Positions 18,301 to 46,200 of a DNA stretch of 64,000 nucleotides are shown here, one piece after another (the first letter of the stretch is position 1; each line of letters starts with the position of its first letter). Source of the stretch: Nemertoderma westbladi (Eukaryota > Animalia > Xenacoelomorpha); assembly GCA_032718475.1 (NCBI GenBank), contig JAUCBJ010007195.1, positions 29,277 to 93,276 of the forward strand. Reading direction: 5' to 3'. Below the pieces are notes generated by a model. It was given only the letters and a program-made list of their open reading frames with translations, ran no database searches and had not been told where the DNA came from. Position numbers and translations under genes: made by a program.

Positions 18301-18731
18301 GGCATTCGCATCCATCAACAGTATAGGTATTGAGTGTTGATTCCCATGGAGTATCCCCTCAATTTTTCCTAGAAAGTCATCGTATGTAGAATTGGCCTTA
18401 CTGGAGTCAGGGCCATAACATGAGAGAGCTGTGTATTGTTGTTCCCTGTTTATAAGGTTAAATGTGGCCCCCACGATATTGTCGCCGCTCTCAACTCTTG
18501 TATAGTTGTGGATGATTGATTTACGTAGGAAGAGGGCTGTCCCTCCAGCTCCTCTGGCGCGGTAGGGGTTGCCCATTAAATCACTAGTGAGTGACTCACA
18601 GTAGAATTCATTGTGGAATGACATTAGCAGGTCTTTAGACTCAATATCATTGAGCCAGTGTTCCTGTATTCCCACAATATCACAATCTGTTAAGATGTTG
18701 TATAAGTAACTGGCTGAGTTTTTGAATCCGT
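15306..18731 (-). mobile_element. 5'-truncated non-LTR retrotransposon (APE endonuclease + RT; RTE-X/CR1-L2-like, clade uncertain) inserted in the satellite
   Basis: Endonuclease motifs GIQEHWL, MDANA, SYIDHI and SDHSPI; RT motifs YRPISIVS, LDISSAFD, GVKQGSLLSPTLF, YADD and FLGV. 3' UTR ends near ATTAAA with no poly(A). The sequence aacta flanks both ends (15301-15305, 18732-18736). Confidence 0.93.
15662..18730 (-). pseudogene. LINE ORF2 (endonuclease-RT), N-terminally truncated, with one frameshift near 17670
   Basis: The endonuclease lies in the frame of ORF 17572..19212 and the RT in ORF 15662..17671. The frames switch around ...KDLFNIW / ELCETNAP... Confidence 0.85.
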
Positions 18732-22277: not shown

Positions 22278-25200
22278 CTATTGTAATTAAATACGTATCA
22301 CGTCTTATTATAATACTACTCGGAATGTTGAAATTAAGAAACTTAATTTCATGTGGTCAAAAACATAACAAAGGGATCATAAAAGCTCGAATAAGTTTTT
22401 GAGTTTATTTTTTCACTTTTTCCATTATGGTAAAGGAGCGGGTTACAGTGCAGTCAGTACTATTTAACCAAAACAATAGACTAATTTCCCTTTATAATGT
22501 GTATTCACTCTCCTCTTGAGACCTTTTATATCTTCATGAGCAACACCAACAACCCTCTCTCTCCCTGCACTGCAAATTATGTTATGAATGATTGTATGGT
22601 AGATGCTATGACATTGTATGAGACATGAGACAGGGTATGAGACATGATATGAGACATTGGATTAACACTTGGTAATTAAAGTGAATCCGTGTTTTTTTAC
22701 CAAATTCCGGATTAAGTAAACATATGAATCCGTGTTTTAGTTTTACACTTCATCCAGTGTTGAGCTTAATATATGAATGCGTGATTAAACACCGCTCCGG
22801 ATCTTAAACATAAATACACCCAGTTTCGGATTCAGTAGATTTAGTGTATCAGTATCACTATGCAGGGCTCCACGGATTACACCTAGTAATAGTGTATCAG
22901 TATCACTATGCAGGGCTCCACGGATTACACCTAGTAATAGTGTATCAGTATCACTATGCAGGGCTCCACGGATTACACCTAATCAGTATCACTATGCAGG
23001 GCTCCACGGATTACACCTAATAATAGTGTATCAGTATCACTATGCAAAATCTAGAAAAAAATCGCCTCCGCTTTGCAGGACATTGCATTCGCCGTGAGAA
23101 CCAGCCAGTGCATAATCTTGCACTTTGGCAGCCTCATGGAGTGAATAAGCATGGTGGACAGCCCATGACTTTCTTGAGACGCATCTTAAAGGACACCGGC
23201 CTTAAAGATGCGGATGATCTAGCAAATGTCATGGGTGATAGGGAGTTGTGGCGGTGCAATTTTGTTGACAAGCCGGCACAGCATTCTTAAAAATGCAGCT
23301 GCAATGCAGCATGCCGATCCTAGATCATTATGCAGGGATCCACGGATTACACCTAGTAATGTAAATTCTATCGAGTTCCATAGGAACAATAATAAATGAT
23401 AGTATGCAGATCCCGATCCGCGTTATTTACCATCCTTTCAAATATTTTTATCAATAATTTTTATCAAATATTATCATTGTTAAATTTGAATATAAAATTA
23501 ATATGAACTCCACATACTATACAAAACATACTATTAATATAATTATAAAATATCAGTTGCTTACAAATTTAGCGAATATATAATTATAATAATTGCACTT
23601 ATTAATTATTATTATTATTATTAGTAATTAAATATTTCATAAACGAAAAATAACGTAAAATAGAAAGAAAACTAACACCATAAGACCATACTGAAAAACA
23701 CTGACCAGGGATAATTTACCAACCTGACCGATAAAAGTTTATGGTGGTGAAAAAGAATGTACCTCGCTGGTAGAACCATGGATCGCTGGTAGAACCATGG
23801 ATCGCTGGTAGAACCATGGATCGCTGGTAGAACCATGGATCGCTGGTAGAACCATGGATCGCTGGTAGAACCATGGATCGCTGGTAGAACCATGGATCGC
23901 TGGTAGAACCATGGATCGCTGGTACAATATTATTTACCAACGTTGGTTAATTAGTATAGTTAACTATCAAATATTTATACAATTGCGAATTAATTAATAA
24001 AATTATTAAGTATAAATGATTAATTAAATATAAATAGCCTTTACTATAAACAATACAGATAAAAAGGTATAGAAATAAAGTTACTTGGTATAAATAGAAA
24101 AGTTGCAAAAAAATAGTAACGCCTTTCAAATAAACTTGAAGCACAAAAGTTTAATTAGTAAAAACAAATTAAATGTAGAAAACGTGTTCAATGGAGTTTT
24201 ACATGTAAATAAAATAAAATTATATAAAATAAACAGCGGAAAGTTATTGCAAGGTAGAGGAGGAGTCGGTTTCCTCGCTGGGTGTTAGACTAAAGGGGAG
24301 TTGGTAATGGGAGTTAGCAACGAGACTGGAGACATGGATGGGGCCGTACGGGGACTTCTGGGACAGACTCACTTGTTGTTTGGCGGCGCACTGAAGCAGG
24401 AAGTTGAACGTAAGGGCGGCCGACATGCGGGAGTTCCTAGAAGGTTGACAGAACTCGGAGAACAGCGTCGGAACGGCGGAGCGCAACGAGGAACGGATGT
24501 TGGAATCGGCGAGAACTTTAGCGTGGCGGTAGAACTTCGGGTCGAAGGAACTGGAGGTGGAGAAACGCGACCGACTCGATAACATAGACGACTGCTGGAC
24601 GGAGGAGTCGGACTCGCGTTGCTCAGCAACCAGACTAGGTCTACCCATCTCTATATCGGGGACCTGGGGGACCGAGGTATCTGTAACCATGGCAACCTCT
24701 GATATATCCCGGAAGTATTCCGTCCCCGGAACAATGCCGGAAGTGCCGGTCACCGAATCCTGGAGGGACTCCCGGAGCTGGCCCAACATCCCCTCCACCG
24801 CCGGGCCCAAAGTGTCCGACTTCTCGGACAACCCGGACACCCGTCTGTCCGACTCGGCGAGCGAGGCGTCCGGGACGATGTGGCCGCTGCGCTGCGGCTC
24901 GACGGACGTCTCTAGCGAGCGGAAGGGCTCCGGGAGCGACAGATCCGCGGTGCGGTTCCGTTCGGTAGGGGGTGCTGGACCCAGCGGCAGGGTCGCTGTC
25001 CCTGGGACGCCCGGTCGACGGCCCCACAGCCGTCCGTGCAGCTCCCCGGAGAGCCCCGGCAGTCGGCGACTTGGGCCCCCCATATCGATCCTCCCGGACT
25101 CTCGGAGTCCCACGGCCGTGTCGTCCACGAATATGTCGCTGGGATGCCAACATATTCCCTCAGAGTGGCCGATGTTAAACTTAAGCGTGGCGACAGGCAG

Positions 25201-28200
25201 GGAAATGACGTTGTCTACGCGGAGCTTCCGCTTACGGGGCCTAGGCGGGCCGACCGCTGGGGCGGCCTGGGGAGCTAACCCGTCGGTTTGGGGAGCTAAC
25301 CCGTCGGGTTGGGGAGCTAACCCGTCGGGTTGGGGAGCTAACCCGTCGGGTTGGGGAGCTAACCCGTCGGGTTGGGGAGCTAACCCGTCGTGTTGGGGAC
25401 CTAACCCATCACCTTGGGGACCTAACCCATCGGGTTGGGGAGCTAACCCGTCGGGTTGAGGGGCTAACCCGTCGGGTTGAGGAGCTAACCCATGGGGACC
25501 CATCTCCCCTTGCCCAGGCACATCGGTATCCATAACGACGGGTACGGACTGCTCAACCCCTCCTTCCAGTACAACCGGCCCCTCCCCGGAGACCGCTGTG
25601 AGTCTTGCAGACTCGTTGGCGCCGCGAGAAAGACCCAACGAGCCAGCCAACCCGCGGGGCCCCTCTACGGCGACGTCGGACTCCGAAGTGGCTCCCGGCG
25701 TCGCCAACCGCTTGCGTTTACCGTCGCCGGGGGGGCCGGAGTCTGGGGGGATGGGCCGCTTCCGTCTGCCGGGTTCCCTGGTGGGTGGTCCCTCGGGAAC
25801 CACTCCTGGGGGGCCCTCGTCGGGAACCGGTGCCCCCTCCGTACGGCGGCCCCCTTCCCCCTCCCTACGGCCCCCTTCCCCCTCCATACGGCCCCCTTCC
25901 CCCTCCCTACGGCCCCCTTCCCCCTCCTTACGGCCCCCTTCCCCCTCCTTACTGCCCCCTTCCCCTACCTTACCGCCCCCCTTCCACCCCTCCACCACCG
26001 AATCCCTACTAACCATCTCCTCGTACCCAAACGATGCCAACTGCTGGAGGAACTGTTCCTCTCGTTCCGCAAACGACAGATGTTCGTCGCCGAAGGTCTC
26101 GGGCCCGAACACTGACTCGGGGGCGAGGGCCGGTGGTTCCAGCAGGGTGATGCTCCGTATATCCTGCACGACAGTGCGGTCCGCGGCGTCCGGGCGGGGT
26201 ATCAGCGCGGGTCCGAGGTCCGGAAACCCATCCCCGGAGCCCCGGAGCTGCCGACTCACCTCCCGCAGGAACGGGTCGTTATCCGCGTCGAACAGCATCC
26301 CGAAGGCCGCCTCCAACTCGATGTGGTCGTCCGGTATGTTTATACAATGGCCGCCACCCAACGCATCCGCGTTCAGGTTGACCAGCTGTTGGTCCCGTCT
26401 GGCCGATGTTATCGAGACCATGCGATAAACTCCCTTGCGAGCCTTCAAAGCGTCTTCGTGAAGACGAATCATCTGGTATTCGTAAACCCGAACGATCCCG
26501 CCGTATAGAATAGCAGCTAATCGCAACGACATTTTCCCCTTCGGGCTTAAATTCCCTCTGCTTAACTCCACGTGAATACCCTGGAGGTATTTCAGAACTT
26601 CCACGCAGGAAGTAGAAATGGAACTTTTCAAGAAATTACGAAATATATTCGGTTGTTTGTTCTGAGCCTCTTTGTATGTCAACCGGTGGATTCCGGCGTA
26701 CCAAAATATACCCAGGGGGGTGTGCAACGAACATATCTTATTCTCCCAAAACATTACGTAACTGATCGTATGGCAGTATGGTGAACACAACGCAAAAGTT
26801 TTAACACAAAAATATTAAAGATTAAACAACAAAAACAAATAAACACAAACCAAATAACGTTAACTAAAAAAACTCTAAAGAAAATAACCTATTTAATTCA
26901 AAATTTAACTAGGCCTACCGTAAACCCTTTGATCCAACTCTTAAAATAAAACAGGAGGAAATCCCGATATCGTGTCTGGCCGGGCAAATTGATGGATGCA
27001 AGAAAGTTTCAGTTATGAGTTAAATACATAGGCCAAAGATTACCGGTAGGCCTAGGCCTACCGGTATGCTTGTCCAGATGTCGTTAATAAAGTGAAAGGT
27101 TACATGGATGATAAACGCTTGGATAGAAACAAAACAATAAACAAAAGTCAATAGGTATAGGCCTACTTACATCATGAAGAATCAGGATAAATCTATCGGT
27201 GCCGGTAGCGTCATACTGGCAAATTTAAACAACGAAACGAACGTCTGATAGTTGGAAACTGATAGTAAATTGATAGGTGAATTGTTACCGGTAGCGGTAG
27301 GGCAAGAGGAGCCAGTCGCCATGCGGTACGGGAACGGTAGGCTAGAGTGGATTCGGTAGAATGCCGCATGAGGGGAAATGTGACGACAGATGTTCATGAC
27401 ATAACATAGTAGAAAGATTAAAGTAAAGGGTATTATAGAAAGTAACGTTGAACGATAAATTTAATTCCTTCTTGAGTAAACTCTACAGCGTCAGGCGGTA
27501 GTCCGCCGAATATGAAGCTATTAAGTACGTACTGCCGGTGCCGGTGCGGGGTCTTAAATTATTGCCCATCAAGTAGACATCCCTCATCCTTTCCGCTTCA
27601 TCATATTGTGCGACTCTAATCTCTCTTCACAAAGTTAAATTAGATGTGGTGGAAATAAACTGACCCGCCCTAACCGTAAACTTTATTCTCATCGACAATC
27701 AGTGCGTGCGGCTGTCTCTGCTCAGTCGGAGGGTTGTCTAGTTGGTCATGTAGAAAACTTATGAGTCTAGGTTTCTGAGATCAGCTGACAGCTGATCTCA
27801 TCGTTTACGAAATTTTACCACATTGCCTGCATTACCATTAAGTAAATTATAAGTTTTATACTGTTTTATACTAGGATGCTAGGCGTTGCACGCGGTAGCA
27901 TCTTATGGCCAAAACCTAGCTCTACCCTACAGACCCGAAGGATGACTCACTTGATGGCCTTAGCTATCGTAGAAAAGATCTACCTGTGATTGATCGCGGC
28001 CAACTGGTTGTTGAGAGGAAAGAGGGAGGTTAACCCATGAGATTCCTGAAACCTCCAGTCCAGTACAAGAAGATAATGCAATGGCTGGTCGCACCAAGGA
28101 CAACGAGTATAGTAAATGTTTTGGGTGATTTTGGTAGAAAATTTTATTGTGATCAATAATCCAAATGATAACCGACTTGAATAATTGAGGATTTTGTATA

Positions 28201-31200
28201 AATTGAAATTAAAAAATTGACACCAGCAACTGTTAAGGCAATTCTTCCGATTGCTTCCATATATTATTATACTGTAGTAATTAATTTTCTGTTGAAAATG
28301 ATTACAATTAAACTTACATAACCGGAATCCCCATCTTTATGGCACACTTTTATGACCATTTCATTTCAGTGACACCTCACATATATTTGCTGGAGACGAT
28401 TGTTTGAAATGTAGTTATTGAATGTTTTGGTTGGAAGTATAATTTAATACACACATTGCAATTGTGGAAAGTGTTCGCGGTATTTCAACTTTCCATAACG
28501 CGAGTTGAATATTTTTGTATTTTATTAAAATTGATTATTCCGATATTACTACTGGGTGCGGGACCATGGGTTTTGGGCACATTCAATAAACTGGGGGCGA
28601 TTTATGGGCGAACTTTGGGGCAACTTACAGGGTACGGGAATAATTTCATAGTTATAAGGGCCAGGGGGGATGGAAAATGCAAGCAGTATTCAGGTTAGCC
28701 TGAGTACTATTAGGCCCTGGCCAACTTCCTGCTGCCTGTAGGGGTGGATTTGGTAATGTGCCAGGCCTAAAGGACAAGGACTGCCCTTAGCGGTCCCTGG
28801 CCAACGGCAGCTACTACGAGCCTGAAAAGGACTCGGAACGCTGACTGCTTGTGTCAGGGATTTGCGACGGGCACCGACGGCCCCTTAGTAGCCAAGCCGT
28901 TCTGGGTCTCGATGATCGAACCCCGGGGTTCGTGAGGGGTGGAGTGGACACGCGAACAGGTGGCCAACTTAAGACTGCCCCCTGACCTAAGCCGTACTGG
29001 TTCTCGATGACCGATCCCTTCGGGGTTCGTGAGGGGTGGGACGGACATGCGAAAGGGCTGGCCACAGGACTGGTTTGACAAGGACTGCCCTTAGCGGTCT
29101 CGGGTCAACTGCGGCTACTACGAGCCTGAAAAGGACTCGGAACGCTGACTGCTTGACTGTGATTTGCGACGGGAACCGACGACAGACCCCTTAGCCAAGC
29201 CGTTCTGGTTCTCGATGATCGTTCCCTTCGGGGTTCGTGAGGGGTGGAACGGACACGCGATGGGGTCGAAAGACAAAGGACTAGACCCGACTAGACTCTA
29301 CTGGCCTACCGACTGTTCGGAGCAGTTTCTCGGCTGCCGAAGCAACTACGAGCCTGAAAAGGACTCGGAAAGCCTAGGTGGTTGGGTTTCTGTGATGAAC
29401 TGACGGACCCCTAGCCAAGCCGTTCTGGTTCTCGATGACCGATCCCTTCCGGGTTCGTGAGGGGTGGAACGGACACGCGAACGGGTCCACCGACACGACA
29501 GACTCCTAGCCAAGCCGTACTGGTTCTCGATGACCGAACCCTTCGGGGTTCGAGAGGGGTGGTACGGATACGCGACAGAGTCTACCGACTGGACCGACCC
29601 TTAGCCAAGCCGTGCTGGTTCTCGATGATCGTTCCCTTCGGGGCTCGTGAGGGGTGGAACGGACACGCGACAGGGTCGACCGACACCGACACTACGGCAC
29701 TAAGACTGGGACTGAGGGAAAATCTGGGGAACATTAGGTAGGCTAAAATTCTGAGCGAACAGCGGGTTATTAAATAATATACCGTAGGGATTTATATTAT
29801 CGTGTATACTTATTGTGAATATTTGGTGTATATTGATTTGGGGAAGCCCAAAATTATTCTTAATCAGGTTTGCAACTATAGGAAGTTACATTAAAGAGTA
29901 TATCCAACTAATGCAGCTTTTCTCAACCGCAAACTTGCATCTTAGAAATATTCCCTCCCCACAATCAATATCCGGTGACTGGCCGGGGCTCGGTGGTCTG
30001 TTAAGTCACGTCTCCAGCATCGGCGTTTTTCCCCTTGGTGTAGGAATAACGGCAACAAAATTAAGAATAATTATATGGTTAATTTTGACCGGGTGTCAAA
30101 ATTAAGAATAATTAACGTGGTTAATTTTGACAGGGTGTCAAAATTAAGAATAATTATCGCGGTCAACTTCAACTGGTGGAAGTTGAGAATCCTTCAATAC
30201 TCTTCAAAAACTCTCTACGTGCTTGCCAGCACCCACTACGAGGAAACTCTGGTATTTGAGTTGAGACAAAGTCGTGGTTTAATTAAACAACAAACTCGAT
30301 CTAACCAACTCGTAGTCGGCAGATCACAATTCGGGAGAGTTGTTAACAGGGAATGGAAGTATCGATCACACCCATTGATATAATTCAAGTTGAGCCAGGA
30401 ATCTGGCACGTCGAAGTTGAGGTACAAGGAACGAACGTTGGACGATTCAGGATTACTGTTCGGGTGGTCCAAGCTGAGTACAATACCTACGAGGAACTGT
30501 TTTACGACATCGCGTATCTCGCCATCGAGGAGGCCTTACAATGACCACAAATAACATATCCGATACCGACGAGATGGATCACCACACAGACTCGGAAGCC
30601 GACGAGGTCCCAAACGTCAAGAACATGACCCGTCGGTTAGGGGCTCTTAAAGGCGGAGTAACCCGAGCGTATCAACGGATGGAGAAACAACTCAAGGGAG
30701 TCAAAACCCCCCTCAATGAGGTACAAACTCAGCTTCAAAGTATCCGAAATATCCTACAGCGGTACGAAAGAATGATACAGGCGTACCAAGAGCTCGTTCC
30801 TCCCACCGATCAGGAAAACTACCCCAAGCTGGAAGAACACGTTGTACATCTAGATGGGTTCCGCAAACAACACCGGAGGACCCTCAGCCTGGTGAGAGGC
30901 TATGAGGAACAGTATTACAAGAGGGCTGAAAGAACAGACGCGGAATCAGTACGATCCTCCAGCATCAGGACAGGAGTACATCACAAGAGAATGGGGTCCA
31001 CCAGAAATCAGCACTCCAGCGCTAGGAGCGAGATATCCGGCTCAGCGCGCAGCTCTCAAGGGGCGCCGCCACTCCGAGACCAACTGAGAGAACGGAAGGC
31101 ATTAGCCCTCAAAGCTCGGATGGAAGATGAGTATATTCAACTGCAAGCCGAGCAAGATGTACTAGCCGCCGAAACACAAAGGCGAGAGGCCGAACAAGCG

Positions 31201-34200
31201 GCCGAACGACAGGCCGAACAACGCGAACAGGAGGCCGAACAACATAGACGAGAGGCCGAACGACAGGCCGAACAACGCAAACAGGAGGCCGAACAACGCA
31301 AACAGGAGGCCGAACAACATAGACGAGAGGCCGAACGGCAGGCCGAACAACATAGAAGAGAGGACGAACGACAGGCCGAACAACGCAAACAGGAGGCCGA
31401 ACAACGCGGACGAGAGGCAGAACGAGAGATCGAACAACGTAAATGGGAAGCGGAAATGCGTAAACAACACGCCGAGGCCCAAGCAATTCTCATCCACAAA
31501 AAGAATGCGGATATTGCAAAACTCGCAGAATACGAAGCCGCACTTATCGAACGAGATATTCAACTCTACGAGGACTGGGAAAGGGATATAGATCAGGAAT
31601 ATGAACCAATTCCGGTACCGGAGTTAGAAAAGTCATTTACACCAACAGCGGCGAAACCTCCGAAACCCGAGATTCCGCCTACCAAACAGTCTACGCTATC
31701 GGCACAAGCCCCGGTGTTCCATCCCCCACCGGCTACGCTAAAGAATGAGGAACCCTATTTCCCATCCAACACCACGACAGCGAGTGTACCCAAGTACGAG
31801 CCTGAAAAGGACTCGGAACGGGACGCCACTCCCCGATCAAACAACCCATTTACATCAACACCACAAACTCGCAGCCGCGTCATTATTAAAACTCCACCTA
31901 CTATTGATCCATCAAGTATGGGAGTGAGTGCCAATAACTATAACCCTCCGAGTCACTCTAGTTCAGACAACGTCAGCATCATCCGGGCGTTGGAGAACCG
32001 CCTTGCCATGCCAAAGATGGAGATTCGCACCTTCGAAGGAGATCCCGTCGATTACCTCAGATTCAAGAAACGGTTCTTTGCGCAGATCGGATCAACGGAC
32101 ATAGCCGACGCACAGAAATTGGTATATTTATCGCAATACCTGGGTGACAAGCCACGCAGAATTGTTGCATGTTTTGAGGGAGGTTCTCATGAGGCATACT
32201 ATGACGCATGGAAAACTCTAGATAAAAGATACGGAAATACCGGAACTATAATTAATAAAACTCTAGAGAAACTGATACAAGACGCGGGATCACTAGGGGA
32301 CCCACAGAACCTCCAGGAATTCTCAGATTCCATGAAGGATGCCTACTACACTCTGAAACCCTTAAATAAGGAGGACCAGGTGAACAACATTCTAAACCTC
32401 CGACAGATCGCCCGGAAGTTCCCCGGATGGCTGCAAAGTAAGTGGGCCTATAAATGCGTAGATCTCCGGCGCAGACATCCAGATCAAGATCCCAGCTTCC
32501 TCGAAATGTCGGCATTCCTGGACGATATCTCCGAAGCCATGAATGACTCGATGTTCTCGAAACAAAGTCTCGCCAAGTTGGACGCAATGGAGAGCAATTA
32601 CCAGAGCAGGGCACCCACTCCAAACCCAAGATTCCGCCCTACTCCTGTGAGTGCGATGGCCATCAGTATGGCTGAGGACTCGGATGACGAGGATTACGAG
32701 GAACCGACCTCAGCAGAAGAATGGGCATGCTACCTAGCGAATTGGGCACCCGAAAGGGAAGGCACCACAGCCTCCCCTATATGTCTCTTCTGTGGGGAGA
32801 AACACAAAGTGGAATTCTGCAGAAAGTTTCAGTTCGCCGAACTCGTCCCACGCTTCGAGGCGATAATGAAACACCGAGGATGCTTCCGGTGTCTTGGAAC
32901 AGGTCACTATGTTCGGGAGTGCGACCAAAGATCATGCTGTACTGTCTGTAACGACCAACGCCATCACACGCTCCTCCATATCCCCGCGAACTTCGATTTT
33001 ACTACCCTCCCCTTTCGGATCGAAGCCAGGCGAAGAGGAGAAACAAACCACATCTTCAAAGGAACCCGGACAACCCAACGGAGAGAAACCAACCCGTTTA
33101 AGATCTCCACCAATACACCACAAGTAACCAATATTTCGGCCACGATTAATCTTATAAATCGCCGCTACATGGTTTTCGCAAAGGTAATCCCAGTGAGGAT
33201 CCAAGGAGTCGGCAAATCTTTGACGACACTCGCGTTCCTCGATAACGGGTCTGACGGAACCATCATCGACCGGGATTTCCTCGAGCAACTCGGCCTAGAA
33301 TATGAACCTTGTAAACGGCCCATACAAACCATCACCGATAACAGAGAGGTAGAGTCTGGGGAGGTGCAACTCCAGATGGAAGGAGTGATGAAGGGCTACG
33401 AAACGGCTAAGTTAACCATAAAGAACGCCTTGGTACACACAGACCTCCGGGTGCGGTTCCGACAATCAGCCGAGTACGCCCCCCTCATACAATTGGACCG
33501 GGACGATGTAGACCTGAGGTGTCCGCAGTTGGACGTAAACCGTATCACCCTACTGATCGGACTTGATACACCGGAACTACACATCCCCACAGGAGATATC
33601 GCCCGATCTATAAACCAGGATGACGGATTTTATGCTGAACGAACAATAATGGGATGGACACTCTGCGGCATTAAGGAGGAAACTACGGACACCTATACCT
33701 ACCTTCCTAAATGTCAGATTAAAGAGAATGTAACCTCTGTGGGTTATTGCTCAGTTTCGGATCTTGACGAGGATTTGTTTCTGGAAACAGAGAAAACCCA
33801 ACGAGAGATGACGAAATATTTTAATTTGGAGACCCAAGAGTTCGCGGAAAAGGACGAAAACCCATCCGAAGAGGACCAATATTGTATGGACGTTCTCGAC
33901 CAGGCCACGTTTAAAGACGGACATTGGCGCGTACCCATGCTTTGGTGGATAATAAGGTTATTGATGATAATAATGATGTTGATAACATTGACACCATTAA
34001 TTGGAGAGCACGGACTAATCTGCCGTAATACCCGGATGGCGAACGCCTCAGTTGAGTCCCTCACTCCTAACCACTTACTGGGGAGACCCAAAACCCACCT
34101 CCTCCCGGAAACCATGTTCCCGGATCCCAACGAGATCGCGAAACATACAAACTGGAAAAAGGCCCAAGCGTTGGCAGCGCATTGGTGGAGGATTTGGGCC

Positions 34201-37200
34201 CAGGAATATCTCATAACCCTCCGGACCAGGAGGAAATGGAACAACACCCACCGGAACGTCGCAGTTGGCGACATGGTACTAGTTAGAGAAGATCTCAAAG
34301 ACCGCGTTCACTGGCCTGTGGCGCGGGTCGTGACCATACACCCAAGCAAAGACGGACTTGCGAGGACTGTGACGATACGAACGAAAGCGGGCCACTACCA
34401 ACGCCCCATCCAGAAGCTGTGCCTTCTTGAAGGCAATGACAGTGGTGATTCTACAAGAGGTGATAAGTTCCCTACGGATCCTGCTGCAGACATTGGTGAC
34501 AATTATAAATGCGTTTAAACCCTTTCTCATCATGTTGACAAACTCTTATTAACTGTGATTTATCGACAATGAGTTATGGACCCCCCTTAAACCAACTGTA
34601 ACCACGCAATGGTATTTGTGTTTCCTCGTGTGTTATGTGGAGTCCAGCATCACCCTGCAGATGTTTCGACTGACGCAGGGTCGTTTATGCATTGTTTACC
34701 CTGATTTTGGTCATCAGGACCTACGATATTGGATTATTGGAAATGGAAAAGATTTGAAGTGGAATTCATTGTATTCATTGCAGTATGTTATGTTGTCCGT
34801 TGCGTGCGCAGTTCGGGGCGTAGGCGGTGTAACGAGTCCAGCTGTAGATCCCGGATTGCCGCGCAACACCCCCTCTATCCCGTTATTCTGGTGGGTCCAT
34901 GGTGCATCCACATGACTTCGACGATAGAGGGTTTTATGTTTCTCAGTCGCGTTATTCTGGTGGGACCGTTGCGTGGATTTTGGGGCGTAGGCGGTGTAAC
35001 GAGTCCAGCTGTAGATCCCAGAATGTTGCGTAACCCCATCCCACATGACTTCGTCGACTGAGCTTTATGTTGTTGGGAGTGTTATTCTGGTGGGTCCCTG
35101 GTGCACCCACGTGACTTCACTCCTAGCGTCTTCATTGTCCGTTACGTGCGCAGTTTGGGGCGTAGGCGGTGTAACGAGTCCAGCTGTAGATCCCAGATTG
35201 CCGCGTAACACCCCTTCCACGACAAAGATTAACCAAAGAAAATGATTCAATATAGTTGGAAATGATGAAAAGGATCAGACAACTCTGCTATAAACCTGAA
35301 TGATGACGCGTATACTGATGAAAATGAAATGATGCGCACCCTGGTGCTGCGCTTATAACAATGATGATAGCCGGGGGGCTATAAACCCAATGATGATGTG
35401 GAAATAAATAAATGTGAAATAAATGGTGGAACTAAATGTGTTGAAATATGTGGAAATAAATGAAATGAGATGAAATAATAATGAAATGAAAAAAGACAAA
35501 AAAAAGGTATAAAAGAGGTCAAAGAAAAGAATTGGAAAAAAAAGGACAAAAAAGTCATAAAAAACTGGTTGGATATTATGTATAGCTATAGTAACTGTAA
35601 ATGCTGAATGTATTAGCAATAAGATGATAGATGCCTATATAGCAATGTTATTGAATAAACTGAATTAAATAAAAAACTGAATTATTCTGCTATCGCTATA
35701 GTTTCAGACTTTCTGGACTTATAATTAACTGAACTAATTTGTAACGGATATAATCGTAAATATGGACCCAAATCGCCAAATTATCGGCGAATTACGTAAC
35801 ACGGTAGATCTACTGGAATATTCGCAACCCGGATCCCCTGACTTTGATACAAATTGGAACATTCTGCTAAATGAGAACGTACGAGAAATTAAATTCACCG
35901 GGCGTGAGGGACCGGATTCTAAGAATCTACGAGCCCTCCGGTTAGCCGATGCTACTACGAGCCTGAAAAGGACTCGGAACGCAAAGGCAACCGGAGGGGA
36001 CGATTCGTCGTTTTGGGAAACGTTCCGGCAGAGCGTCTACAGATCCCGATGTTTGATCTACGACAACGAGGGAAACGCGACGCCCACCTCGAAGGCGATT
36101 ACGTTGGCGAGATGTCAGAGCTTCGTCGACGACAAGAGTACGTACCTCGCCCACTGGGGAAACCTGTCGGAGTGTACGGCGACGCTTCGAGAGGAACGCG
36201 TATCGATTATACAAAACCGCGACGACTACCAGGAAAAGTACGGGGCGAAAGAATACGGTCGATCCTTAGTCGTCGTCCTCGGAACCCTGGACGGTTTGGT
36301 ACTGGTGTGCCGAATATTCCCGACACCCAGACATGAAGTGCAGGCAGCCGGAGCGATCTGGTTGCTGCCTACGGATATCCAAAAGATCCTCTTCGACTTC
36401 GACGTCATTAAAATCGGGTCGGATATCAAGGCGGACGTCCGGAACGATTACGCGAACGCTCCCGCAGGAAGAAACCGACGAAACGACCTCAACGCACTTA
36501 GCCATTGCATCGATACTCAAACGCTGCTAGCCTGGTTACGATTCGCCGAGTTCATGCGAGGATTCCAAGAAGTGAGACCGACGAAATCCGGGATCGGCTA
36601 CCTCGCTGTGCTCAACGGCGGTATCGACTTCAAACCCCAGAAATTCCGGGACTATAATAAAATATACGGCGGATACCCGGGATTAGAGATAAAGAGCGAG
36701 CGAGAGGGTCGATGGAAGGACGTCGATCGGAAGTGGACGATACACCAAAGGTGGGAGAATCCCGATCGACGGAGCTATATCTACGTCGTTATGGAATGCT
36801 ACACCGTCGCTAAGTTTATCTGCAAGACTCTAGATAACCTCATCAAGGCGGTCCCCCTTTCCTTCGTCGACTACGACTGGAACGAGGTTATAAACCACGC
36901 GTTTAAAGCGGTCGAGAACATTACACCGGGAGAATCAAAAACGCCCGCCGTTATCGATTCCTGGGACGAGAGCGGACCTTACGACATCCCTACGATTACC
37001 GAACTTCTCGGTGCGGAGGAGCCTCTGATCTCCTCGGAAGGGGAAGAGATATGGCTAAACGAGGGTGTTCTACTCTCCACCCCGAAGCGACAACTCGAAC
37101 CGGAGGCCGCGTATGGACCGGCCGCCAAACGGGTTGCCTCGGCCGAACCGATAAAGAGAGCAGGCGTCTACACCCCACGCGGCTCCGGTAGCCCCGCGAG

Positions 37201-40200
37201 AGAGGTAGCCACTACGGCTGCATTGAGCGACTTCGGCGACATATGCCAACGGTTATCCCCGTATCCTTTCCCGGGTGGCGAAGATTGGTCGTCGGAGATC
37301 CCGAGTACCAGCCACCAACGGACCCGCTCAGCGATACTGGTCGAGGAGGGACCCAGCGATGCGCCGACACCCGATGATCTCCTCGGTATCCCTACGTCGA
37401 AAACCCCGGCACCTCTTCGCCGACCAGCGGTAGCTACTACACCCGCCGTTCCTCAGGACCCTATGCGACTAACCCGTTGGTACGCCGAGCAAACTGAATG
37501 GATCCACCGCCAGAAACGGTCGTCCGAGTTGAGACCATCGGGACATAAAGAGGGTTATCGGAGCGAAAACATACTACGCAAGAGCCCAGCATTCCGCGGG
37601 CTACCGATCACCGAGAATATTCCGAAGAGCGACCGACGACTCGAATACTACGCCGGCGTTCCGATTCCGATATTCCCCGGTCGGGAGATGCAGTTGGAGG
37701 TATGCGACGACTGCGGTTCGGAGCAGTGCCCACGCAGCAGAAGGAATCGGGTTACCGATTCTTGCCTCCAGCTCCTTGGGATACTCTATTGCCCATACTG
37801 CGCGATATCGGGCCACGACGTTTCGGTCTGTCCGATCCTTTATAACCTCTGCACCAAGTGCGGTTTCCGTGGACATTCCGCTAGCCCCCGCTGCTATATT
37901 AAATGTCCAACCAAAGACGTTACCGCTATGGGCAATATGGTCATGTTTGAGACATACGCAAACAGCCATTTAAAGACCAAGTTTCGGAGAAACGCTCGGA
38001 ATATCGCGCAGGAGATGGCGTGCGGATATTTCTCCTTCCCGGAACGCCTCCACACGTCGGCCTCGCTACCCTTCCATTACGTGGATCTGCTACTGAGCGC
38101 CGGATTATTCGGTCCATTCGAAGTTATTAGACGATTATATTCGTATAAAGAGGAGTTCGGTGACGGAGAATGGTTCCTAGAGGCACGCAACTCCGAGTTG
38201 GAAAGACGAACCGACATGATCCCGATGCCTTCGAAAGGAAGAGCCGCCAGGAGACAAGCCGAAGCGTTACTCACGATGGATGTTGACGCTCCTCTACCAG
38301 CCATAGCGATCGATGAGAGTCGACGGGCGAAGAGACGGAAGGCGTATCAGAAAAAGAAATAGTGGATTGGGATATTCCAGGAACATTTATCGAACATTTA
38401 TTTTTATACAAACTCTAGGCCAAATTAATTAAAACTATGCAATATTAAATTTGGGATTTTTATATTGGGAATGACCTACGCAAACTCAATCGACCGACAG
38501 ACTTCACGAAGGTCATTGGGGGGGACTGTTCGCGGTATTTCAACTTTCCATAACGCGAGTTGAATATTTTTGTATTTTATTAAAATTGATTATTCCGATA
38601 TTACTACTGGGTGCGGGACCATGGGTTTTGGGCACATTCAATAAACTGGGGGCGATTTATGGGCGAACTTTGGGGCAACTTACAGGGTACGGGAATAATT
38701 TCATAGTTATAAGGGCCAGGGGGGATGGAAAATGCAAGCAGTATTCAGGTTAGCCTGAGTACTATTAGGTCCTGGCCAACTTCCTGCTGCCTGTAGGGGT
38801 GGATTTGGTAATGTGCCAGGCCTAAAGGACAAGGACTGCCCTTAGCGGTCCCTGGCCAACGGCAGCTACTACGAGCCTGAAAAGGACTCGGAACGCTGAC
38901 TGCTTGTGTCAGGGATTTGCGACGGGCACCGACGGCCCCTTAGTAGCCAAGCCGTTCTGGGTCTCGATGATCGAACCCCGGGGTTCGTGAGGGGTGGAGC
39001 GGACACGCGAACAGGTGGCCAACTTAAGACTGCCCCCTGACCTAAGCCGTACTGGTTCTCGATGACCGATCCCTTCGGGGTTCGTGAGGGGTGGGACGGA
39101 CATGCGAAAGGGCTGGCCACAGGACTGGTTTGACAAGGACTGCCCTTAGCGGTCTCGGGTCAACTGCGGCTACTACGAGCCTGAAAAGGACTCGGAACGC
39201 TGACTGCTTGACTGTGATTTGCGACGGGAACCGACGACAGACCCCTTAGCCAAGCCGTTCTGGTTCTCGATGATCGTTCCCTTCGGGGTTCGTGAGGGGT
39301 GGAACGGACACGCGATGGGGTCGAAAGACAAAGGACTAGACCCGACTAGACTCTACTGGCCTACCGACTGTTCGGAGCAGTTTCTCGGCTGCCGAAGCAA
39401 CTACGAGCCTGAAAAGGACTCGGAAAGCCTAGGTGGTTGGGTTTCTGTGATGAACTGACGGACCCCTAGCCAAGCCGTTCTGGTTCTCGATGACCGATCC
39501 CTTCCGGGTTCGTGAGGGGTGGAACGGACACGCGAACGGGTCCACCGACACGACAGACTCCTAGCCAAGCCGTACTGGTTCTCGATGACCGAACCCTTCG
39601 GGGTTCGAGAGGGGTGGTACGGATACGCGACAGAGTCTACCGACTGGACCGACCCTTAGCCAAGCCGTGCTGGTTCTCGATGATCGTTCCCTTCGGGGCT
39701 CGTGAGGGGTGGAACGGACACGCGACAGGGTCGACCGACACCGACACTACGGCACTAAGACTGGGACTGAGGGAAAATCTGGGGAACATTAGGTAGGCTA
39801 AAATTCTGAGCGAACAGCGGGTTATTAAATAATATACCGTAGGGATTTATATTATCGTGTATACTTATTGTGAATATTTGGTGTATATTGATTTGGGGAA
39901 GCCCAAAATTATTCTTAATCAGGTTTGCAACTATAGGAAGTTACATTAAAGAGTATATCCAACTAATGCAGCTTTTCTCAACCGCAAACTTGCATCTTAG
40001 AAATATTCCCTCCCCACAATCAATATCCGGTGACTGGCCGGGGCTCGGTGGTCTGTTAAGTCACGTCTCCAGCATCGGCGTTTTTCCCCTTGGTGTAGGA
40101 ATAACGGCAACAGAAAGGTTTTTCAATTATATTAAGATACTGGTACAACTAGGAATTTAAGATTGATATTGATGTAATGGTATGTTATTTAATTAATTTT

Positions 40201-43200
40201 AAAAATTAATTTAACTGTAGAAACCTTCATTAGTGTTACGATAGAGCAAACTTTATCACTTATTGACACCGGGGCCCTCTTCCATTTAGAATTATAGTCA
40301 GTAAAAATGGGGGATCAAAAATCGCATTGTTTTTGAATTTTTAAATTCATGATACGGTAAGAATTGGGCCTCAAAATCCTCAATGATGTCAGTTGGGCGC
40401 TCTCTAGCGCCCATGTGAAGAATACCAGGATTTCCGCCCATGTGAAGAATACCAGGATTTCACTTTTCGGTCGACGGAATTATAATATATGACGATTTTT
40501 TATTTTCTTAAATTAACCTTTATTAAGTGTTTTTTAGCGCTTATTTCTGTCTTATAACCTGTACATATACTAATTCGTTTATTGTTTTGGTTAGATTCAG
40601 CCCTTCTGTAACCTGTGTTTTTAGTGAAAACCTGGTATTCTTCACATGGGGGTAACAGCAAAGTGAAATATAACGGCAGAAAGTCTGGTATTCTTCGCAT
40701 GGGCCCAGTTGGGCATTATTGGTCGGATTATTGCTGACAACCGTACTACATACATACCCAAAGGAGTCGAATATTTGTTTCATACACAGGATTTCTGTTG
40801 CTACTCGAACGACTGCCAGTACAGTGTAACCAAACATTGTTAGTATAGCAGTATAGTGTAACCAATGAAAGAGCTGCCTTCTAATCTGTTTGTTCGGAGG
40901 GAAATTCAAGAGGAATTTAGAAACACCAAAAATGTGTTTTAACTCAGTCTGTTCTGGGTGTCAGTTGTCTGGTTGACAGGGTGTTGATGGGGATGCCTGG
41001 TGGTTTTTATATTGCTCTTTGGTCGTGGACTTACTTATCTTGGTACCGGTAGCGGACATCTATACTAAGAAAAAAAGCGAGGATTTCATGTCCTCTTACT
41101 AGGGCATTCCTATGTTTGTGTTAGTAGAGACCCACATTTTTGATAGCGTGCTGAGCTGATGCAATTAGTCTGCCACTCTGCCAGCAGCTTTACATGTGGT
41201 GTGGTTTGCAGTTGGCGTGGTAATGTCACGATTGTGTTTTTGGTGAGTGGAAGGGGAAGTAGTACCGTCAATATGAAATGGGAAGTAGAATAGGCATAAA
41301 TCACATTCATAATATATGATAAACCAGTTGCGAAGTACCGGCAGTAGCAGTCCGGTGCGGTAGGCAGGTACCGTATGTGGGTATGTAGTTCAAGAACATG
41401 ATATGCTCACTCGTTTAATTGACCGGTATAATTAATGGATTTCATAGCTGATCTCTTTATAAAATATCGAAGAAAACGCGACTATCTAGAAGACAAGTGT
41501 TCCTCGTCCATTAACTCTTTGTACTCAAAGATAATTCCAGAGGATTCCGATAACATAGGAGAGATATATCGGCACCATACATCCCGTGCGATACAATATT
41601 TAAACCCTTCCTGGGCACAGGAAACAGTTCCCCGACCAACTATTACAAACATAAGTGAGCAGTTAAGTCGAGCTAAACAGACCCGCGTATATGAGACGGC
41701 AACCCAACCCCAATTCATTACGGGATTCCTCAGCGTTTTCTTCCTCACATATTACAAGAAACATTTTCGCGTCCAAACCTTTGCGAGTTTCGGGACGGGC
41801 GTGGCGTTAGGAGCCGTGTTTTACTCAAAGATCATCGTTCGGTCGTACGAGCGGGTCACGTCTTACATAACATTTGGTAACCTGGGAATGGGACCCGATG
41901 ATTACAGGGACGCCTGGAGATACGCAAAGAAAGTAAGAAGTGGAACGCAATAATAAAAATCAGTGAATAAAATATAATTTTTATTTGTAATTATTCGAAA
42001 TAATCGGAGATATTTTTCGCTCGCTCGCTGTAACTTACGTAATAATGTTAAGGAGATTTGTTTTCCCTGTTAGAACTAAACCGATTCGTCATAAATTCAG
42101 TAACTTTAGTAATATAACCGGCCTTTCGACCCAAACTCGTGGTGTTAGTCGTTTTATACCTTTGAAGATTCAATTTCTCGGTGCAGTAGGAAAATTATCC
42201 TTTTCAACCGGTACAAACAAAACCGGAAGTAAGGCGGACAATGCATCCACTCCAGACCCGGACGATGCATCCACCCCAGAACCGGAGGATAACACTGACA
42301 CGGCCGATGACTTTACCGATGATCGCGAGGTTGATGACGATGGAACTATTTACCGGAACCCGACCGGCAACCAGCCCTGGTGGCATCCGTGGCGCAGCGC
42401 CCGCTGGAAGGATTCCGAATGGCCGGAAGATAAACTCCGGCCCCCGGACGCCGAGTTCGACCGACTGCAGGACACCTACACGGAGCTGAACGAGGGAAGC
42501 TGGACGTCCACGGACCCGTTCGACTACAGATGGTTCCAGGAAACGATGAAGAAAGATAAGGTGAGATAGTTGGAGAGAAGTGAGATGGGGTGGTCTGGTC
42601 TGGTCTCGTTGTTTCATAACTTGGTACCGGTAATGAATGTAGTGGAAGTGATTGACACAAATATAATTATCCATCTACTAATAGCCCCTACAAATATTTT
42701 CATATTTTTTGAAATCTGATAATTAAAATTATTAATTGTGCGTGCTGCGTATTAATGTGCGTATTAATACGTCCTGTTATGTACCACCACTCCCTTAGGC
42801 TCACTACAAGTTCTTGATACTACATGCCTATATTAAATGTCCCATTAATAGTATATGTATCTTCTCCATTAGGTTGTTATATTTATAAAAGGAACCCCCA
42901 GCCATCCCCTATGTCGCTTCTCCCATGCCCTTGTCAACGTAATGGACCTACACGGAGTGCCTTATAAGAGTTACGATGTTCTATCTGATTATAAACTCCT
43001 CGAGGGAATTAAACGATATTCTATGTGGCCAACCACTCCAATGGTGAGTCAGATAGGGAGGGAGGTGGGGTGGGTGGCAGATAGGGCGGGAGGTGGGTGG
43101 CAGATAGGGAGGGAGGTGGGTGGCAGATAGGGCGGGAGGTGGGTGGCGGATAGGGAGGGAGGTGGGTGGCGGATAGGGAGGGAGGTGGGTGGCGGATAGG

Positions 43201-46200
43201 GAGGGAGGTGGGTGGCAGATAGGGAGGGAGGTGGGTGGCAGATAGGGAGGGAGGTGGGTGGCAGATAGGGAGGGAGGTGGGTGGCAGATGGGAGGGAGGT
43301 GGGTGGCAGATAGGGCGGGAGGTGGGTGGCAGATAGGGAGGGAGGTGGGTGGCAGATAGGGCGGGAGGTGGGTGGCGGATAGGGAAGGAGGTGGGTGGCG
43401 GATAGGGAGGGAGGTGGGTGGCGGATAGGGAGGGAGGTGGGTGGCAGATAGGGAGGGAGGTGGGTGGCGGATAGGGAGGGAGGTGGGTGGCGGATAGGGA
43501 GGGAGGTGGGTGGCGGATAGGGAGGGAGGTGGGTGGCAGATAGGGAGGAGGTGGGTGGCAGATAGGGAGGGAGGTGGGTGGCAGATGGGGAGGGAGGTGG
43601 GTGGCAGATAGGGATGGAGGTGGGTGGCAGATAGGGATGGAGGTGGGTGGCAGATGGGGAGGGAGGTGGGTGGCAGATAGGGAGGGAGGTGGGTGGCAGA
43701 TAGGGAGGGAGGTGGGTGGCGGATAGGGAGGGAGGTGGGTGGCAGATAGGGAGGGAGGTGGGTGGCAGATAGGGAGGGAGGTGGGTGGCGGATAGGGAGG
43801 GAGGTGGGTGGCAGATAGGGATGGAGGTGGGTGGCAGATAGGGATGGAGGTGGGTGGCAGATAGGGAGGGAGGTGGGTGGCAGATAGGGAGGGAGGTGGG
43901 TGGCAGATAGGGATGGAGGTGGGTGGCAGATAGGGAGGGAGGTGGGTGGCAGATGGGGAGGGAGGTGGGTGGCAGATGGGGAGGGAGGTGGGTGGCAGAT
44001 AGGGAGGGAGGTGGGTGGCAGATAGGGAGGGAGGTGGGTGGCGGATAGGGAGGGAGGTGGGTGGCGGATAGGGATGGAGGTGGGTTGCAGATAGGGAGGG
44101 AGGTGGGTGGCAGATAGGGAGGGAGGTGGGTGGCGGATAGGGAGGGAGGTGGGTGGCAGATAGGGAGGGAGGTGGGTGGCAGATAGGGAGGGAGGTGGGT
44201 GGCGGATAGGGAGGGAGGTGGGTGGCAGATAGGGATGGAGGTGGGTGGCAGATAGGGATGGAGGTGGGTGGCAGATAGGGAGGGAGGTGGGTGGCAGATA
44301 GGGAGGGAGGTGGGTGGCGGATAGGGAGGGAGGTGGGTGGCAGATAGGGATGGAGGTGGGTGGCAGATAGGGAGGGAGGTGGGTGGCAGATGGGGAGGGA
44401 GGTGGGTGGCAGATAGGGAGGGAGGTGGGTGGCAGATAGGGAGGGAGGTGGGTGGCGGATAGGGAGGGAGGTGGGTGGCAGATAGGGAGGGAGGTGGGTG
44501 GCGGATAGGGAGGGAGGTGGGTGGCAGATAGGGATGGAGGTGGGTGGCAGATAGGGAGGGAGGTGGGTGGCAGATGGGGAGGGAGGTGGGTGGCAGATGG
44601 GGAGGGAGGTGGGTGGCAGATAGGGAGGGAGGTGGGTGGCAGATAGGGAGGGAGGTGGGTGGCAGATAGGGAGGGAGGTGGGTGGCGGATAGGGAGGGAG
44701 GTGGGTGGCGGATAGGGATGGAGGTGGGTTGCAGATAGGGAGGGAGGTGGGTGGCAGATAGGGAGGGAGGTGGGTGGCGGATAGGGAGGGAGGTGGGTGG
44801 CAGATAGGGAGGGAGGTGGGTGGCGGATAGGGAGGGAGGTGGGTGGCAGATAGGAATGGAGGTGGGTGGCAGATAGGGATGGAGATGGGTGGCAGATAGG
44901 GAGGGAGGTTGGTGGCAGATAGGGAGGGAGGTGGGTGGCAGATAGGGAGGGATGTGGGTGGCAGATAGGGATGGAGGTGGGTGGCAGATAGGGAGGGAGG
45001 TGGGTGGCAGATAGGGAGGGAGGTGGGTGGCGGATAGGGAGGGAGGTGGGTGGCGGATAGGGAGGGAGGTGGGTGGCGGATAGGGAGGGAGGTGGGTGGC
45101 GGATAGGGAGGGAGGTGGGTGGCAGATAGGGATGGAGGTGGGTGGCAGATAGGGAGGGAGGTGGGTGGCAGATAGGGAGGGAGGTGGGTGGCAGATAGGG
45201 AGGGAGGTGGGTGGCGGATAGGGAGGGAGGTGGGTGGCAGATAGGGAGGGAGGTGGGTGGCAGATAGGGAGGGAGGTGGGTGGCAGATAGGGAGGGAGGT
45301 GGGTGGCAGATAGGGAGGGAGGTGGGTGGCAGATAGGGAGGGAGGTGGGTGGCAGATAGGGAGGGAGTTGGGTGGCAGATAGGGAGGGAGGTGGGTGGCA
45401 GATAGGGAGGGAGGTGGGTGGCGGATAGGGAGGGAGGTGGGTGGCAGATAGGGAGGGAGGTGGGTGGCAGATAGGGAGGGAGGTGGGTGGCAGATAGGGA
45501 GGGAGGTGGGTGGCAGATAGGGAGGGAGGTGGGTGGCGGATAGGGAGGGAGGTGGGTGGCGGATAGGGAGGGAGGTGGGTGGCAGATAGGGAGGGAGGTG
45601 GGGGCAGATAGGGAGGGAGGTGGGTGGCAGATAGGGAGGGAGGTGGGTGGCAGATAGGGATGGAGGTGGGTGGCAGATAGGGAGGGAGGTGGGTGGCAGA
45701 TAGGGAGGGAGTTGGGTGGCAGATAGGGAGGGAGGTGGGTGGCAGATAGGGATGGAGGTGGGTGGCAGATAGGGAGGGAGGTGGGTGGCAGATAGGGAGG
45801 GAGGTTGGTGGCAGATAGGGAGGGAGGTGGGTGGCGGATAGGGAGGGAGGTGGGTGGCAGATAGGGAGGGAGGTGGGTGGCGGATAGGGAGGGAGGTGGG
45901 TGGCGGATAGGGAGGGAGGTGGGTGGCAGATAGGGAGGGAGGTGGGTGGCAGATAGGGAGGGAGGTGGGTGGCAGATAGGGAGGGAGGTGGGTGGCAGAT
46001 AGGGAGGGAGGTGGGTGGCAGATAGGGAGGGAGGTGGGTGGCAGATAGGGAGGGAGGTGGGTGGCAGATAGGGATGGAGGTGGGTGGCAGATAGGGAGGG
46101 AGGTGGGTGGCAGATAGGGATGGAGGTGGGTGACAGATAGGAATGGAGGTGGGTGGCAGATAGGGATGGATGTGGGTGGCAGATAGGGATGGAGGTGGGT

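Follow-up and report, generated by a model that had tools for sequence, protein, structure and literature searches.

How does a retrotransposon without its own polymerase come to look freshly inserted, and what purpose do its second protein and its repeated hairpins serve? These questions are raised by a BEL/Pao element at positions 28472-40112 of a 64,000-nucleotide stretch of Nemertoderma westbladi DNA (contig JAUCBJ010007195.1, 29,277 to 93,276 of the forward strand), referred to below as the window. An initial annotation, made from the letters alone, proposed that the element pairs an accessory protein with structured RNA modules in an undescribed RNA-protein system. The analysis favours, with a probability of about 0.55, a non-autonomous copy of an abundant, self-priming BEL/Pao family, in which a second open reading frame (ORF2) is expressed by splicing and four RNA folds serve as protein-binding signals.

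The outline of the element is that of BEL/Pao (Belpaoviridae), with a Pao gag, a protease, a DUF5641 tail, long terminal repeats (LTRs) ending in TG...CA and a 5-bp target-site duplication. The two 1586-nt LTRs (28472-30057 and 38527-40112, plus strand) differ at two positions, the target site GAAAG is duplicated at 28467-28471 and 40113-40117, and a G-rich polypurine tract (38518-38525, plus strand) precedes the 3' LTR. The copy is thus as young, and its target-site duplication as perfect, as originally described, and both frames, gag-protease ORF1 and the 866-aa ORF2, are uninterrupted. Its LTRs do exceed the range of 0.2-1.2 kb given for BEL/Pao, in a superfamily where an env gene is occasional (PMC3118150).

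ORF1 (30541-34518, plus strand, 1325 aa) matches Pfam models for the Pao gag domain DUF1759 (E 4.5e-15), an aspartyl protease and the DUF5641 tail (E 1e-28), and its gag carries three zinc knuckles. The Pao-type gag, protease and integrase C-terminal domains by which BEL/Pao membership is recognised are all present, and each of 17 gag-protease relatives has a Pao-type domain, PF05380 or PF03564; in 16 of them PF05380 or PF03564 occurs with pol, or the gag domain PF03564 occurs alone. Reverse transcriptase (RT), Peptidase_A17 and the integrase core were all missing from the same ORF1 scan. In an alignment with a full-length relative, residue 1135 pairs with its residue 1124 and residue 1171 with its residue 2041, which shows an in-frame deletion of about 900 codons that removed RT, RNase H and the integrase core. 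The junction lies at about 33927-34050 (plus strand). The three missing activities are present in L004, a metagenome locus that also bears an ORF2 relative. The window element is therefore an internally deleted, non-autonomous BEL/Pao copy, and the absence of RT, RNase H and integrase noted at the outset is correct for ORF1 but reflects a deletion in some copies rather than a feature of the design.

Contigs from four sequencing runs (X1, X2, X4 and X6), compared with window positions 27500-41500, place this copy within a very abundant family in X1 and X2. In these two runs the summed contig depth, which is not a copy number, rises from 26-31 in the left flank to about 15,000-46,000 over the element itself. 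At the first deletion junction (33927), five contigs of each run part from the sequence of the window. The stretch across the junction also occurs with other letters in X1, X2 and X4, which indicates that more than one copy carries the deletion. Copies further differ in the length of the LTR array, with a joint between 38939 and 39562 in X2 and X4 and most modules omitted from X6 contig 25, and contig joints show that the number of 42-nt units in the leader varies as well. That X6 is an RNA run is a guess, and nothing about expression follows from its contigs. The 22 coding variants listed, of 649 in all, divide into 11 synonymous and 11 non-synonymous, too partial a set for a test of selection. 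Run X4, which bears the same organism code as X1 and X2, has a gag depth of only about 27-44 compared with about 20,000, and its contig differs by about 5%; the contrast possibly reflects a burst restricted to some populations.

A second feature of the family concerns the start of reverse transcription. Two nucleotides past the end of the 5' LTR, positions 30060-30072 form the exact complement of LTR positions 29852-29864, a 13-nt match that was reached in 3 of 5000 block shuffles. No tRNA-type TGG site occurs at the position after the 5' LTR. The arrangement is that of Tf1, in which the site beside the LTR end complements the element's own LTR in place of a tRNA. On this evidence, 29852-29864 (plus strand) is the predicted self-primer and RNA 5' end, and 30060-30072 (plus strand) the predicted primer-binding site, which is repeated at 30101-30113 within 42-nt tandem units. 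A fold begun at 29852 forms the primer duplex beside a long hairpin; over 350 nt, the pair probability is 0.33 at the first site and 0.56 at the repeat. A TATA-like word lies at 29829 and ATTAAA at 29890. The self-primer segment implies a transcription start near 29852; together with the ATTAAA, it divides the 5' LTR into a putative U3 (28472-29851) and R/U5 (29852-30057), plus strand, and would place the hairpin array of the LTR in U3 and hence in the 3' untranslated region (UTR). The RNA of the element thus likely primes its reverse transcription with its own 5' end.

One ORF2-bearing relative, L005, has a TGG tRNA-type primer site, so the mode of priming is not tied to ORF2. Two other routes to the primer were considered and set aside. 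A primer built by splicing is unnecessary, since the 13-mer is contiguous, and neither ATTAAA (29769, 29890) sets a polyadenylation cleavage site at the primer end. An ARAGORN scan found no tRNA. Within 30057-30158, each 42-nt unit recreates CA, AA and the primer site, and carries an 11-bp hairpin that overlaps the start of the next primer site; the units may be products of wrong-site priming.

ORF2 (35762-38362, plus strand) follows ORF1 in the position that env occupies in some other BEL/Pao elements. Its product comprises an exonuclease-like domain (about aa 145-390), an acidic and proline-rich linker, a Cys domain (aa 648-780) with CCHC knuckles at 677 and 697, and a basic tail. Word-based searches for relatives found nothing; only a full HMMER scan recovered them, seven in number, at E values from 4e-14 to 3e-4. 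A Cys-rich domain, containing two CCHC knuckles and another Cys pair, is common to all seven. A profile of seven relatives, from which the window protein was left out, matches ORF2 at E 4e-48 over aa 158-860. Among metagenome contigs, a scan aimed at ORF2 only gave five confirmed loci (L001 to L005) out of 46 pattern matches, and in three of these (L003, L004 and L005) the relative lies directly 3' of a BEL/Pao gag-pol, intact in L004 (Peptidase_A17, E 1.5e-45). L001 holds an ORF2 relative without gag-pol, and L002 is a short contig. Viral and prokaryote contigs yielded no ORF2 relatives. A recent capture of a host gene, named at the outset as a case against the proposal, thus does not apply, because relatives follow BEL/Pao pol at three of five loci.

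The exonuclease likeness comes from a match of the L004 domain to PF01612 (E 9e-4, short of the cutoff) and from an Atlas search, in which 24 of 30 matches fell in the WRN-like/PF01612 set (best 0.91). Combined with the family profile and the CCHC domain, this bears out the view of ORF2 as an element-borne accessory protein with exonuclease-like and zinc-knuckle parts. The Cys domain alone scored below 0.9 (DUF8363, zf-CCHC), which is a lead only. Sequence searches of the PDB with ORF2 gave weak zinc-knuckle matches only, plus EXD2 at E 1.6. The relative P0003 matched the nucleocapsid of human immunodeficiency virus (HIV) at E 1e-4. AlphaFold models were poor (pLDDT 30 and 41), and the model of ORF2 itself (41) gave no usable fold match.

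Catalysis by ORF2 appears doubtful. The ExoI DxE is kept in P0003, P0004, L001, L003 and L004. At the ExoI position ORF2 lacks it, through a gap of about 20 residues or a substitution, depending on register. An ExoII-like D (aa 225) and an ExoIII-like Y...E (aa 340-345) are retained, which leaves the motif set of an active DEDDy enzyme (ExoI DxE, ExoII D, ExoIII YxxxD/E) incomplete. One X4 contig crosses the ExoI region without a large insertion, so the short form lacking DxE is not private to the window copy. The loss of ExoI points to a catalytically weak or dead nuclease that likely binds RNA. Inactive DEDD folds that do so include EXD1 and Maelstrom (PMC5408684). Expression from a spliced message is likely as well, given a strong pyrimidine tract and CAG acceptor 2 nt before the ORF2 ATG in L004 and a candidate acceptor, TTTCAG, at 35702-35707 (plus strand), 54 nt 5' of the ORF2 start in the window.

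Two relatives show unusual arrangements. In L001, the DxE-intact relative (7996-11182) stands in 16.6 kb without gag-pol, flanked by degenerate direct repeats; segments of the repeats recur in inverted orientation immediately upstream, and the whole is possibly an ORF2-only non-autonomous element. In L002 (79-2022, relative P0005), the Cys domain is duplicated and the exonuclease-like domain shortened.

The repeated modules reported initially are real, with the correction that they form four families (A-D) rather than three. The LTR, both ORFs and the space between them are all occupied as claimed, but only family A lies inside the ORFs. In module A, a hairpin with a GAAA cap stands on an A(C/G)UA/GAA internal loop, and the closing stems are specific to each copy. 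Three copies lie in each LTR (28800-28852, 29104-29156 and 29332-29384, plus strand, and the same copies at +10055 in the 3' LTR), one in the gag linker of ORF1 (31780-31832) and one in the N-terminal extension of ORF2 (35941-35993); the 24-nt core is read in two frames. The internal loop looks like loop E. Two common variants of other family copies (31808 and 35955) preserve or tighten the module A motif. Module B is a long hairpin with a GAUGA/GA element, confined to the LTRs at six copies each; in the 5' LTR these span 28880-29683, with starts at 28880, 28977, 29185, 29405, 29500 and 29595 (plus strand). All six fit a kink-turn pattern, in which a 3-nt bulge and then tandem GA/AG pairs lie between two helices. 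A reading of module B as a selenocysteine insertion sequence was rejected, the upper helix being short and an apical AA, part of the usual definition, absent.

Modules C and D occur only between the ORFs, in a domain of about 440 nt after ORF1 (34785-35225, plus strand) delimited by repeat comparison and folding. The three C copies (34796-34872, 34965-35039 and 35138-35214) share a fixed core of about 37 nt. The three D cores lie at 34882-34919, 34951-35052 and 35081-35118, and C2 forms the apical arm of D2.

Structure is best supported by the closing stems, which diverge in sequence between copies yet each pair with their own partner. Own flanks outdid flanks swapped among copies, at 2 of 120 permutations for A, 2 of 720 for B and 1 of 6 for C. 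Shuffled flanks reached the own pairing in 1 of 2000 trials for A and in none of 2000 for B, C or D. Module D closing stems reach -12.0, -12.6 and -13.1 kcal/mol, compared with -0.6 to -7.0. Folding z-scores for three tested A copies are -3.3, -2.0 and -3.1. The description of the modules as structured is accordingly upheld by flank pairing and not by bulk folding energy, which shows no excess.

The same stems speak against a DNA-level origin, in which the LTR repeats are enhancers or neutral template-switch duplications and any folding is incidental. Modules A and B do lie in the predicted U3, the usual place for enhancer repeats, and the lability of array length and the lack of a bulk folding excess would suit this account. 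Nevertheless, it leaves unexplained why stems wholly different in sequence still pair with their own partners, why C2 was grafted into D2 as an intact arm, and why, relative to shuffles, the B and A copies tested have better folds on the plus strand than on the minus strand. This origin is improbable. Even less probable is that at least one module, most plausibly C, releases small decoy RNAs, either by cleaving itself as a ribozyme or by blocking an exonuclease with its fold. A fixed core of this size within variable stems would fit such a function, and RNA viruses carry arrays of structured 3' UTR modules. Rfam, however, returned nothing at the gathering score and no family at E <= 1 apart from a chance small nucleolar RNA match, and hammerhead, twister, pistol and hepatitis delta virus cores, judged by eye against their consensus, are not evident.

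Co-occurrence of ORF2 and modules across relatives, which the initial annotation led one to expect, did not materialise, as 0 of 5 distant ORF2 loci carry modules. Covariance models of A, B and C returned nothing below E 0.5 at these loci, and no comparable arrays were seen there, with no covariance model available for D; exact A, B and C patterns had 0 matches in viral contigs. The absence indicates that a dedicated ORF2-module pair is not conserved at the depth sampled. None of the five loci is a close relative (about 17-26% protein identity), and some are decayed or truncated; the result excludes co-occurrence across the clade but leaves room for a recent partnership.

Such a partnership would amount to a dedicated circuit resembling that of Rev and the Rev response element (RRE), in which ORF2 binds the modules and co-evolved with them in this lineage after nuclease loss. 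The CCHC knuckles and basic tail of ORF2, with the nucleocapsid match of P0003, would equip it for this role. ExoI is lost in the window protein and kept in array-free relatives, C and D precede the candidate acceptor, the place expected of an RRE-like element, and module A stands within the ORF2 message itself. Against these points stands the absence of modules or comparable arrays from all five loci, with the distance and decay just described, and the circuit is judged unlikely. A more serious contender, still short of an even chance, is that the modules are signals for host factors or Gag, like the constitutive transport element (CTE) or the direct repeats of Rous sarcoma virus (RSV), and that ORF2 acts separately by trimming or shielding RNA ends or by countering small-RNA silencing. 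The arrays are younger than ORF2 and less widely distributed, and the kink-turn-like B and loop-E-like A resemble platforms for host proteins. A separate role for ORF2 agrees with the 3'-end processing proposed for DEDDy ORF3 proteins (PMC5408684). Retention of module A inside both ORFs is left unexplained by this account, and the kink-turn register is not the lowest-energy fold. As to what chiefly binds the modules, host factors (L7Ae-type kink-turn, export or loop-E binders) are a tentative choice, ORF2 a doubtful one, Gag nucleocapsid an unlikely one, and the case of no binder or some other binder less likely again.

The favoured account can be set out as a cycle. Transcription would begin near 29852 and stop after the 3' LTR counterpart of the ATTAAA at 29890, and the 5' segment of the RNA would prime its own reverse transcription. 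Both messages would then carry, in the 3' UTR, a 1.4-kb array of three A and six B modules, which would act on each of them. With ORF2 translated from a spliced message, C and D would lie in the predicted intron and mark only the unspliced genomic RNA for export or packaging. The four folds would thus be protein-binding signals that direct RNA to export, stability and packaging, and ORF2 a catalytically weak or dead RNA-binding adaptor. Template switching between modules may enlarge and shrink the arrays, and full-length family members would provide RT and integrase in trans, by which the deleted copy is mobilised. An AATAAA early in U3 (28585, 38640) might end the ORF2 message before the A/B array and yield a module-free isoform. 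A bolder version, which is rather unlikely, holds that the lineage turned an exonuclease gene into a dead-nuclease zinc-knuckle RNA adaptor, arrayed its sites in the intron and 3' UTR, and dropped the tRNA primer. If true, it would represent an independently invented Rev/RRE-like circuit in an invertebrate retrotransposon, perhaps behind the very high copy number.

Several results weigh against the favoured account. Its transcript start, splicing and expression are predictions from sequence alone. Primer pairing drops to about 0.2 in a 690-nt fold. Per-site depth at the deletion junction is low (about 700-1,500), as it is at 32625-32667, away from the junction. For ORF2, the Pfam scan gave no match, the N-terminal domain of L004 reaches PF01612 only at E 9e-4, below the Pfam cutoff, which makes the exonuclease assignment weak, and the best Atlas match has 161 of 256 features in common where the tool's mark is 170. 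On the RNA side, fixed 120-nt windows do not fold above shuffles (mean z -0.04 for the U3 modules), and the z-scores of several individual B, C and D copies are weak. In-register covariation is small, at 1 of 9 pairs for A (91 of 500 shuffles), 2 of 26 for B and 3 of 25 for C. The kink-turn register of module B lies 3.6-5.6 kcal/mol above the best fold, a different Watson-Crick register being favoured, in a model without a kink-turn term. Moreover, the module copies are paralogues, and the core limits were set after the copies had been viewed.

Each part of the element has a precedent in another group, whereas the combination and the protein family appear undescribed. The claim of an undescribed system is narrowed in this way by rotifer LTR elements, in which a DEDDy ORF3 is known (PMC5408684). 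DEDDy exonuclease ORF3s of untested function occur in rotifer Ty3/gypsy-like and Penelope-like elements (PMC5408684; also PMC5718144, PMC6431247, PMC6338049), and Juno/Vesta and Athena/Terminons resemble the window element in bearing a DEDD-type accessory ORF 3' of pol (PMC5408684). The rotifer proteins keep their catalytic residues (DEED; PMC5408684), whereas the window ORF2 has lost ExoI. Compared by description only, ORF2 also differs in its BEL/Pao setting and its fusion to a conserved multi-knuckle Cys domain. Within BEL/Pao, the departures are an extra ORF that is exonuclease-like with zinc knuckles rather than env, and an LTR end without a tRNA primer site. Nematode Cer elements reportedly have an exonuclease-like extra domain in older papers.

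Self-priming is described for Tf1 and Tj1 (PMC4600332) and predicted for Tcn1 and TAR (PMC6317226). Tf1, Tj1 and sushi share with the window element a primer site that complements the own LTR rather than a tRNA (PMC4600332, PMC6317226). These elements, with Tcn1 and TAR, belong to Ty3/gypsy and Ty1/copia, whereas the window element is BEL/Pao, with a 13-nt match and a tandemly repeated primer site. On the retroviral side, the approximately 440-nt predicted-intron domain and the repeated 3' elements recall Rev/RRE, Rec and its response element (RcRE), CTE and RSV, and the predicted spliced accessory protein with a basic tail recalls Rev/RRE-type systems. The window element shows no sequence or Rfam match to them.

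In a literature search, neither an exonuclease ORF nor self-priming nor module arrays turned up for BEL/Pao, within a scope that excluded Repbase, GyDB, supplements and older subscription papers and may have missed the slash spelling. The partial texts of PMC3601003, PMC13524379, PMC11662393, PMC4408406, PMC2656454, PMC5443660 and bioRxiv 10.1101/2021.11.23.469668 contain nothing on a BEL/Pao exonuclease ORF, self-priming or arrays. The element therefore adds an unnamed BEL/Pao accessory family, which joins an exonuclease-like domain to a conserved zinc-knuckle domain that lacks a Pfam model. It also offers another candidate case of priming without a tRNA, which that search found unreported in this superfamily, and four compact RNA modules whose natural stem swaps reveal which letters matter. 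If ORF2 binds the modules, the pair would be a retrotransposon counterpart of Rev/RRE, and the function of DEDDy ORF3s would become directly testable.

The surroundings of the element are rich in repeats. It lies in or beside another very high-copy repeat (28120-28471 and 40113-40704), whose depth reaches about 160,000. This repeat has inverted and 27-nt tandem repeats, and X1, X2 and X4 each show joints that bypass the element. Large satellite arrays fill 1-21546, 43059-46927 and 50224-63798, with units of 30, 23, 41 and 30/61 bp. Inside a 30-bp satellite, 15662-19227 (minus strand) holds non-LTR retrotransposon frames, endonuclease-like and RT-like by eye. An 856-residue stop-to-stop frame with 7-residue repeats spans 24244-26814 (minus strand), and a 172-aa ORF without a Pfam match lies at 41435-41953 (plus strand).

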